DNA of 56,976 nt, filler included, from Jimgerdemannia flammicorona (taxonomy: Eukaryota): assembly GCA_003990765.1 (NCBI GenBank). It is 3 parts of 3 records of this genome, joined end to end, with 100 filler letters (N's around TTAATTAATTAA, not from the genome) between each part and the next. Parts side by side here need not be neighbours in the genome. Positions count along the whole stretch, not along the records: positions 19,030 to 37,953 come from RBNJ01002072.1; 2 more parts are not named here. One strand, 5' to 3'. Shown here piece by piece: positions 25,510 to 26,363 of the stretch. Position 1 is the stretch's first letter. Every line of letters starts with the position of its first letter. The notes under the pieces were generated by a model. The model was not told the origin of the DNA, did not search any database, and saw nothing but the letters and a program-made list of their open reading frames with translations. A program made the position numbers and the translations under genes.

Positions 25510-26363
25510 ATACCTGCTGCTCACCAAACCTCAAGGTCAAGGAATTACCAAGGTACCTCAGTTGAAGAAAAGATGTTCCAAGACATCAGAAGAGCCATGA
25601 GGACCCATACAAGAAGGACTCCTACCCTCAACCTGGGTACTGGGGATCCTTATCACTTTATCCTCTACTGCTATGAAATGGAAACAAGGATCACTATTGC
25701 TACCAAATGCCTCCAAATATAGCAGGAGTATGAAATAAGAAACCTCCTATGCTGGGAGTTTCCACACAAGAGTTACAAGATGCCACTTCTATAGATATAT
25801 ATGAAGCAAGAACAGTTAAGAAGATTCATCAGATCTTCAGACATGTACCATGGTCAATCTCCAACTTGGAGTATGTTAGAGTCTCAGACTTCAGAGATCT
25901 GTCAGCCTGCCATATCAATGCACTAGAAGCCAGGGTGGCTACAGAAGCCCAGTCCACTATCACCCTCAATAGTGATGAAGTAGAAGACTTCTGGTATCCC
26001 ATCCTCCAAAACAACCCAGATCAATTCCTGCAAGGATTGATCTCTGCATTCCAAGACTCCAGCATCCAGATCAGACCTTCCCAAGACCCCACATTTGTTC
26101 TCTATTTTGTAGAAGAAAACCTCATAGACTGAAGAGCCCCAGACCTCCTTGTTCCTGCCACTGCTGAATGTGATAACATCATTGGCAATGATGTCATCCC
26201 ACATGACATACGTGAAATGTGTGACATATGCAAAATGTGCAATATATATGAAATGAGCAATCTACATAATGATGAGATGAACAAAACTGATCTCATCTCC
26301 TTTGAAGACATCCTGACCTCTGATGAAGATAAAGCCCCCATGGTCCTGAACTTTCTGCTCTAA
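25510..26363 (+). pseudogene. 3' accessory ORF of element A, unknown function
   Basis: Homologous from start to stop with 43620-44447 and 49434-48604; start codon appears mutated to ATA; internal stops and a frameshift near 25740. Confidence 0.8.

Follow-up and report, generated by a model that had tools for sequence, protein, structure and literature searches.

Long terminal repeat (LTR) retrotransposons outside animals are usually seen as gag-pol machines. An extra open reading frame (ORF) in such an element is a known kind of thing, though known mostly from plants and rotifers, and selection on these ORFs has rarely been shown. In bdelloid rotifers, the LTR retrotransposons Juno, Vesta, and TelKA carry ORF3 genes, and the available excerpts of that study caution against assuming that an ORF3 is an env (Rodriguez, Kenefick and Arkhipova 2017; PMC5408684). 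Extra ORFs beside gag-pol in the plant Ty3/Gypsy elements Ogre, Tat, and Athila are described, in excerpts of two papers, as env-like or as having no assigned function (PMC6431247, PMC5408684). In the fungus Postia placenta, the dUTPase of Gypsy elements varies in position (at the Pol N-terminus, between protease (PR) and reverse transcriptase (RT), or at the Pol C-terminus), and a structure figure in the available part of the same paper marks an additional ORF of unknown function, which may or may not belong to the family considered here (PMC2864245, 2010). Here we describe an accessory ORF behind pol in three Ty3/Gypsy elements from Jimgerdemannia flammicorona (GenBank assembly GCA_003990765.1). 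They lie in a stretch of 56,976 nucleotides, which we call the window; it consists of three parts of three records joined end to end by filler (positions 19,030 to 37,953 come from RBNJ01002072.1).

The three elements are A (19518-26842, plus strand; delimited by an LTR pair and Pfam domains) and two copies of a family B, which are about 90-93% identical along their length: B1 (38054-45273, plus strand; its 5' end is lost at a gap of N's) and B2 (47779-56603, minus strand, in the orientation opposite to B1). In each, a sense ORF of about 275-285 codons lies behind pol and ahead of the 3' LTR. A first-pass annotation of the window had placed these ORFs behind integrase (IN), and that is where we found them, on the same strand as pol: at 25510-26363 (+) in A, 43620-44447 (+) in B1, and 49434-48604 (-) in B2. 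No further copy was found in the window. We propose that the ORF is a genuine accessory gene ("ORF3") of a dUTPase-bearing Ty3/Gypsy group, that it would be expressed from its own internal TATA promoter, and that its product would be a regulator or adaptor. Judging from the sequence comparisons that follow, we give this reading a probability of roughly 0.6.

The ORFs of A and B are clearly related. BLASTP aligns the core of the A and B1 proteins without gaps (40/101 identities, 63/101 positives, E = 1e-24), so the similarity that had been counted by hand as 36/84 is significant. The N-terminal parts also align (15/51, E = 1e-4), as the annotation had said. The similarity that it reported at the C-terminus is weak by itself (12/41, E = 0.11); what stands is the P-x-V-L-N-F end of A and B1, which is common across the family alignment. 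The copies are tied together by P0002 (247 amino acids), an intact relative of the A type found in a metagenome. P0002 is 70-79% identical to element A (53/67 and 141/201 identities by tblastn, E = 1e-98), 38% identical to B2 over 238 residues (E = 2e-46), and 36% identical to B1 over 242 residues (E = 2e-41).

To what family do these proteins belong? A profile search of 1,835,955,588 representatives returned 6 proteins at E <= 0.001. A word search with B1 for proteins of nearly the same length gave 1 of 166 candidates, and a word search with profile A5 gave 12 proteins at E <= 0.01 among 5998 candidates. None of the 574 candidates from a search for longer, fused forms was a relative. Including two further cluster members, the family has 16 database proteins. 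All are encoded on ENA or JGI metagenome contigs of 567-4848 nt, all are unnamed or labelled "hypothetical protein," and none has a precomputed Pfam domain. They form at least five subfamilies (A-type, B-type, P0003, P0013, and P0011/P0005/P0016), and P0006 is more distant. Relative to P0009, the A-type reference, A-type members are 63-79% identical and the other subfamilies are 22-48% identical. Pattern searches of contigs added a single locus, L001, from 269 matches in metagenomes; there were no relatives among 83 matches in genome contigs or among 71 in viral contigs. L001 is a metagenome contig of 1535 nt without pol. Its ORF is fully open for 291 codons, and an in-frame stop precedes its ATG by 19 codons. 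All members that extend to the N-terminus begin with MP[AP]xR (P0009, where the start is MPAAR, and P0001, L001, P0003, and P0011), and position 25510, which had been proposed as the start in element A, is exactly the position of this motif.

Comparisons of these sequences indicate that the accessory ORF is under purifying selection. First, at least five subfamilies, with only 22-48% identity to P0009, have open full-length ORFs. An open frame across such divergent subfamilies argues strongly for constraint. Second, the ratio of nonsynonymous to synonymous substitution rates (dN/dS, by the method of Nei and Gojobori) is 0.19 for B1 or B2 versus L001 over 267 codons, with dS of about 1.7-1.8. 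Because dS is near saturation, the true ratio may be lower. In the same comparison the ratio is 0.13-0.15 for the first 215 alignment columns, which correspond to the N-terminal domain, and 0.36-0.51 for the tail. The open frame, the low ratio, and the conserved start all agree with the annotation's claim of a selected accessory gene.

The ORF might instead be a decaying relic, or a captured fragment of a host gene, with no role for the element. Such a relic would fit the lack of any assignable function and the stops in all three copies in the window. In A, the first codon is not ATG, there are in-frame stops at 25720-25722 and 26130-26132, and there is one frameshift between about 25755 and 25773. 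The B1 ORF begins with ATG, ends with TAA after 275 codons, and is interrupted by one in-frame stop, at codon 7, and B2 has two in-frame stops and no frameshift. But a relic would not be expected to stay open across the subfamilies with a dN/dS of 0.19, or to keep its start, its tail motifs, and an upstream TATA box. Also, the pol of element A is far more broken than its accessory ORF, and no cellular homologue was found among the 1.84 billion representatives. We consider a relic very improbable.

We then asked how the accessory gene might be expressed. It is a separate cistron and not an extension of pol, because the spacer between them has stops in all frames in A, B1, and B2, and L001 has stops ahead of its ATG. 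In A, pol ends with the stop at 24886-24888, right behind the C-terminal module of integrase, and the spacer is 24889-25509 (+; three-frame translation). In B1, the pol stop is at 42958-42960 and the spacer is 42961-43619 (+). In B2, these are at 50099-50101 and 50098-49435 (-). Thus, the accessory ORF begins 620-660 nt downstream of the pol stop.

Each spacer has a TATA box near its 3' end: TATAAAAG at 25422-25429 (+) in A, 88 nt before the start of the ORF, and TATAAATA in both B copies, at 43559-43566 (+) in B1 (61 nt before the ATG) and at 49500-49507 (-) in B2 (73 nt before the ATG). The TATAAAWR pattern is rare. There are exactly two sense-strand sites in each of A (7325 nt), B1, and B2, and the second site is within the 3' LTR in B and, in A, 116 nt short of the point where the repeated part of the 3' LTR begins. 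The single site in L001 is at -80. In B1, B2, and L001, the stretch from the TATA box to the start of the ORF contains no ATG. Under a first-order Markov model, the chance of a TATAAAWR in the 51-nt interval from -100 to -50 is 0.003-0.006 per lineage, with a product of 9e-8; the true significance is lower because the interval was chosen post hoc and because B and L001 are related. Nevertheless, the placement of the TATA box is far from random.

The internal TATA boxes also resemble those of the LTRs. In B, the internal TATA box has 12 (B1) or 11 (B2) bases identical to the context of the first LTR TATA and 12/13 identical to that of the second, and the 12-nt GTATAAATACCC of B1 is identical to the LTR TATA context at 44790. 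In A, the internal context TTGAGGAATATAA resembles TTGAGGACTATAA at the start of the 3' LTR (12/13). Any one of these matches is not significant alone (E values of 0.026 to 0.87); the notable point is their parallel occurrence in two lineages. Two other parts of the spacer are conserved. A 16-nt block, AAAGACTTACCACAAA, at 25490-25505 (+), just before the accessory start in A, is identical in L001 and lies there in another reading frame, so the conservation is at the level of DNA or RNA, not of protein. B1 and L001 also have a conserved block of about 50 nt in common, at around 43330-43380 in the B1 spacer. Because a TATAAAWR lies upstream of the ORF in a context that matches the LTR TATA, these data suggest that the spacer contains a candidate internal promoter followed by a short conserved 5' leader. 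The promoter would drive a subgenomic mRNA whose first AUG is the start of the accessory ORF and which would end at the polyadenylation site of the 3' LTR.

The main alternative is that the same gene is expressed from a spliced subgenomic mRNA, as for the env of retroviruses or gypsy, with a 5' leader joined to an acceptor before the ATG and no internal promoter. Splicing is the usual route to an ORF3 in retroviruses. A pyrimidine-rich block (beginning CATCCCCC in L001, B1, and B2) followed by AAG/AC lies just before the start in all four copies, and the 16-nt block, being independent of frame, could be a splice or branch element. On the other hand, AAG is a weak acceptor, and splicing would leave both the rare, conserved TATAAAWR at -61 to -88 and its LTR-like context unexplained. 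We view splicing as an unlikely alternative to the internal promoter.

What might the product do? The accessory proteins are about 250-340 amino acids long and acidic, with an isoelectric point of 4.3-4.9. About 200 residues form a conserved N-terminal domain, and the net charge over the last 60-100 residues is about -14 to -19. Two motifs in this tail, F-x-[DN]-L-I-x-F and a near-terminal P-x-[VI]-L-N-F, are kept in most subfamilies, and the P0011 type keeps an acidic tail that is rich in W, F, and L. In seven members, we found no transmembrane segment (the highest Kyte-Doolittle mean over 19 residues was 0.59-1.07), and the N-termini are hydrophilic, with no signal peptide. The sequence is that of a soluble protein. 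Because it lacks a signal peptide and a membrane segment, it is not an env, in agreement with the annotation's view that it is "not a classical env." Nor is there a membrane anchor or a fusion peptide in these seven members, a Pfam family above the cut-off in any of the 16 members, or a fold match in BFVD or PDB at E <= 0.001 (with a model whose mean predicted local distance difference test score (pLDDT) was 46.6).

Other identities were also considered. Pfam searches of five ORF pieces and of the 16 members gave chance matches below the threshold only (AAA_28 at 0.14; ATG5_HBR in 3 of 16 at 0.028), and sequence profiles of the PDB gave no matches at E <= 10. In the ESM Atlas, the best leads scored 0.86 (adaptin-like clusters) and 0.87 (unnamed bacterial clusters), which both fall short of the 0.9 needed for anything stronger than a lead. 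The AF2 (AlphaFold2) models are poor, with a mean pLDDT of 38.2 from 6 alignment rows and 46.6 from 12, so the result that Foldseek found nothing in PDB or BFVD at E <= 0.001 carries little weight. From the second model and the family alignment, the N-terminal domain seems to be mostly helical and to be followed by a short beta region and a disordered tail. A second, gag-like capsid gene is not indicated: aligning profile A7 to two gag segments of B2 with hhalign gave probabilities of 0.8% and 0.1%. Several readings of the tail fail as well. A clathrin box must have an acidic fifth residue, and this does not hold across the subfamilies; LxxLL is present in the A-type only; and PxVxL is in the wrong register and fails across the subfamilies.

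Of the systems introduced above, the bdelloid ORF3 genes are the nearest precedent. In both cases, an extra ORF lies behind pol in Gypsy-like elements that bear a dUTPase, and in both cases one type of ORF3 occurs in different retroelement lineages (excerpts of PMC5408684). The bdelloid ORF3 proteins described in those excerpts have recognisable origins (a paramyxovirus-like F protein, a GDSL esterase, a DEDDy exonuclease, and small membrane proteins), whereas the family described here has no detectable relative in Pfam or among PDB profiles. Specifically, no Pfam SGNH or DnaQ-like domain was found, so it is not an enzyme of the GDSL esterase or DEDDy exonuclease type. In addition, the rotifer elements, as described there, lack a chromodomain, and family B has one. 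We compared the plant ORFs by their partial descriptions; no plant sequence is among the family matches. We found no description of the accessory family in the available parts of PMC2864245, PMC3248453, PMC12210899, PMC6431247, and PMC5408684. A protein family with such an expression architecture appears to be undescribed in the literature and databases that we searched.

A functional parallel may come from another host and another family of elements. The tas/bet region of spumaretroviruses is a 3' accessory gene with an internal promoter, and the acidic C-terminal activation region of its product acts on both the internal promoter and the LTR promoter. Spumavirus Tas and herpesvirus VP16 raise transcription as activators. 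In the elements studied here, the internal and LTR TATA boxes share their context (with the TATA at -61 to -88), and the tail has a charge of -14 to -19 and motifs with F, L, I, and W, although the internal promoter here is predicted from sequence. The accessory protein has no similarity to spumavirus proteins in sequence or in fold (BFVD search). Ty1 offers a second precedent: an internal promoter in this fungal LTR retrotransposon makes p22, a truncated Gag that is a self-restriction factor. So a regulatory protein from an internal promoter has a precedent in fungi, but p22 is part of gag and the accessory ORF is unrelated to its element's gag (hhalign probability below 1%).

In the proposed mechanism, the product would be an acidic protein with an N-terminal domain and an acidic tail with two short hydrophobic motifs. 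The tail may serve for docking or activation, by recruiting a host protein. Its likeliest single role, and a tentative one, would be in a transactivator of the element's own promoters; this idea arises because the internal and LTR TATA boxes share context. As the N-terminal domain is not basic, recruitment would be via another protein and not by direct DNA binding. Other adaptor roles may be binding of SUMO or Atg8 (both are possible readings of the tail), binding of histones, or counter-silencing. A bolder version, which we regard as doubtful, is that these are "complex" retrotransposons with a dedicated transactivator, an internal promoter that copies the core promoter of the LTR, and positive feedback as in foamy viruses. 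Such a loop would have arisen on its own outside animals, among a group of dUTPase-bearing Gypsy elements in soil eukaryotes (probably fungi). The fold of the orphan N-terminal domain would then be new, and would serve to recognise the promoter or a cofactor.

Several points weigh against an accessory gene with its own promoter and a regulatory product. All three copies of the ORF in the window are broken. Between B1 and B2, dN/dS is 0.42 for the ORF, as compared to 0.23 for the RNase H-IN stretch and to 0.52 and 0.92 for the other two frames of the ORF; this pair discriminates poorly because it has mostly decayed after insertion. The argument from the TATA boxes comes down to three lineages, two of which (B and L001) are related, and expression of the ORF is a prediction from sequence alone. 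A search for RNA runs containing the sequence returned none. As for the product, Pfam, PDB, Foldseek, and the Atlas gave no match in sequence or fold that would support the proposed function, the N-terminal domain is not basic, which counts against direct DNA binding, and the P0011 subfamily lacks the L-N-F end. Lastly, the likeness of the F-x-D-L-Φ motifs in the tail to acidic activation motifs is a presumed one.

How did two kinds of Gypsy element come to have the same accessory gene? The annotation had described A and B as two distinct lineages, which had exchanged or retained it. The divergence is real: in tblastn comparisons of B proteins to A, identity is 33% over 147 amino acids for dUTPase, 28% over 105 for PR, 34% over 108 for RT, 33% over 150 for RNase H-IN, and 29% over 73 for IN, and the two differ in chromodomain, LTR length, and module order. 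The order is PR-Cys/His-dUTPase-RT in A and, with a nucleocapsid (NC), NC-dUTPase-Cys/His-PR-RT in B. The Cys/His module adjoins the dUTPase on opposite sides (21658-21831 in A and about 53530-53697 (-) in B2); it has no Pfam match, and between A and B it is 34% identical over 58 amino acids by tblastn and 39% over 62 by tblastx. A and B are nonetheless less distinct than the annotation had said, because both carry a dUTPase. The homologous dUTPase, the Cys/His module, the 620-660 nt spacer, the internal TATA box, and the accessory ORF are common to both. These shared features make A and B look like two branches of one group with dUTPase and accessory ORF.

One possibility is that the accessory module moved between unrelated Gypsy lineages by recombination and was not inherited along with pol. 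The accessory ORF is indeed the most similar segment of the element: the best tblastx segment has 114 bits and 42% identity over 106 amino acids, versus 86 bits and 38% over 108 for RT, and tblastn gives 40% over 101 amino acids plus 33% over 57, versus 28-34% for the domains of pol. An exact 16-mer also occurs in both A and a B-type relative (L001), and the different module orders imply that recombination has occurred in this group. Yet stronger constraint alone can raise the identity of the ORF, and one ancestral architecture explains the shared dUTPase, Cys/His module, spacer length, and TATA box together. Exchange is therefore a serious but less probable history. Retention from a common ancestor that had both the dUTPase and the accessory ORF is the simpler one, and on these comparisons we think that it is probably correct.

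The assignment of A and B to Ty3/Gypsy (Metaviridae) is based on PR, RT, RNase H, and IN, which occur in this order on one strand, between LTRs, with a primer-binding site (PBS) after the 5' LTR. (The Pfam families are RVP_2, RVT_1, RT_RNaseH_2, rve, and SH3_Tf2-1.) Element A has the Pfam domain order PR, dUTPase, RT, RNase H, IN, with the protease at 21127-21612 (+; Asp_protease_2 and RVP_2), the dUTPase between PR and RT at 21877-22260 (+; E = 3e-22), and heavily broken RT, RNase H, and integrase at 22661-24888 (+; RVT_1, RT_RNaseH_2, RT_RNaseH, and rve, along with translation). Family B has a zinc knuckle, dUTPase, PR, RT, RNase H, IN, an SH3-like module, and a chromodomain. In B1, the dUTPase is at 38857-39240 (+; E = 4e-25), between the zinc knuckle of the nucleocapsid and the protease. 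The chromodomain is at the end of pol, at 50117-50278 (-) in B2 (Chromo, E = 2e-12; SH3_Tf2-1, E = 2e-18). It lies at the C-terminus of integrase, as in chromoviruses, and the annotation was right to give B a chromodomain. It had also said that A has none, and no Chromo match was found in 24 of the 39 plus-strand segments of A (at least 45 amino acids), including all 10 that start at or after 24013. Element A has no chromodomain that we can see, but A is degraded and may have lost a remnant.

The LTRs of element A, at 19518-19640 (+) and 26720-26842 (+), are direct repeats of 123 bp (121 bp according to the annotation) with 94% identity, and the first is followed by the PBS-like ACTTGGTACCC. 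In B2, the matching part of the 5' LTR is at 56160-56728 (-) and is followed by the PBS-like ACTTGGTAGC; a sequence beginning ACTTGGTA lies directly after both 5' LTRs, in the position of the PBS. At the 3' end of family B, the stop codon of the accessory ORF is followed by a purine tract and then by TGTAATAG, which is the inverse of the LTR end TTATTACA, and L001 is arranged alike. In B1, the candidate polypurine tract is GGGGGGAAGGA, directly after the stop codon at 44448-44460 (+), and TGTAATAG comes next. This arrangement implies that the accessory ORF runs right up to the polypurine tract and an LTR of about 812 bp (about 813 bp in the annotation). If it starts at TGTAATAG, the B1 3' LTR is at 44462-45273 (+), and the part in common with the B2 5' LTR begins at about 44709. 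The B2 3' LTR is at 47779-48589 (-) by repeat comparison, with the same caveat about its 5' boundary. The 3' ends support this length, but the B2 5' LTR, the only 5' LTR of family B in the window, matches over just its last 565 bp or so, and the match diverges 248 nt before the end of the window (56729-56976). An interruption of the B2 5' LTR likely explains this. As in B2, the 5' LTR of A, which is preceded by 19030-19517, matches only the 3' part of what seems to be the whole 3' LTR. The true LTR of A could be longer than 123 bp, because a sense-strand TATAAATA at 26604-26611 precedes the repeated 3' LTR part by 116 nt. No target-site duplication was found for A or B2.

The surroundings of the elements hold a few other features. 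A fragment of a Copia-type RT (27079-27354 (-); RVT_2, E = 4e-17) lies in AT-rich DNA just past the 3' LTR of A, so element A is in or beside an older Copia remnant. When B1 (38054-45273) is compared to related contigs from runs X1, X2, X5, and X9, most of the differences are T or A in the window copy and C or G in the relatives (for X1: T>C 187, A>G 109, C>T 80, and G>A 45), which fits decay of the B1 copy by cytosine deamination. Run X1 alone gave 1853 matching pieces of contigs, so family B is abundant in at least one soil sample. The contigs of the four runs gave no informative junctions. Joins between the parts of the window are at 18930-19029, which is about 490 nt before the A 5' LTR, and at 37954-38053, where the 5' end of B1 is removed; each has 2 x 44 N's around 12 bases. 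Outside the elements, there are 33 ORFs of at least 110 amino acids, and among the 27 that were scanned, the sole domain not from a transposon is in an ankyrin-repeat ORF (36116-36550 (+); Ank_2, E = 4e-6). A 579-amino-acid open frame at 909-2645 matches no Pfam family. Direct repeats at 1039-3375 and 6718-9095 form a duplication of about 5.7 kb with 79-92% identity, and units of about 1.27-1.3 kb are repeated in tandem at 16487-17561 and 17752-18885. The window has no tRNA gene and no Rfam family.

What this case offers is a compact orphan family under clear purifying selection, with a start, tail motifs for possible docking, and a candidate promoter that are all conserved. The family is invisible to annotation based on Pfam, so such ORFs will be masked along with the repeat or labelled "hypothetical protein." The combination suggests a self-regulation of these elements that is closer to that of complex retroviruses than to that of simple retrotransposons. 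If the promoter and the regulatory role are real, then retrovirus-style regulation, with a subgenomic transcript and an accessory regulator, would exist in a Gypsy lineage, and the gene would offer a way to study how host control is evaded or tuned by such elements.

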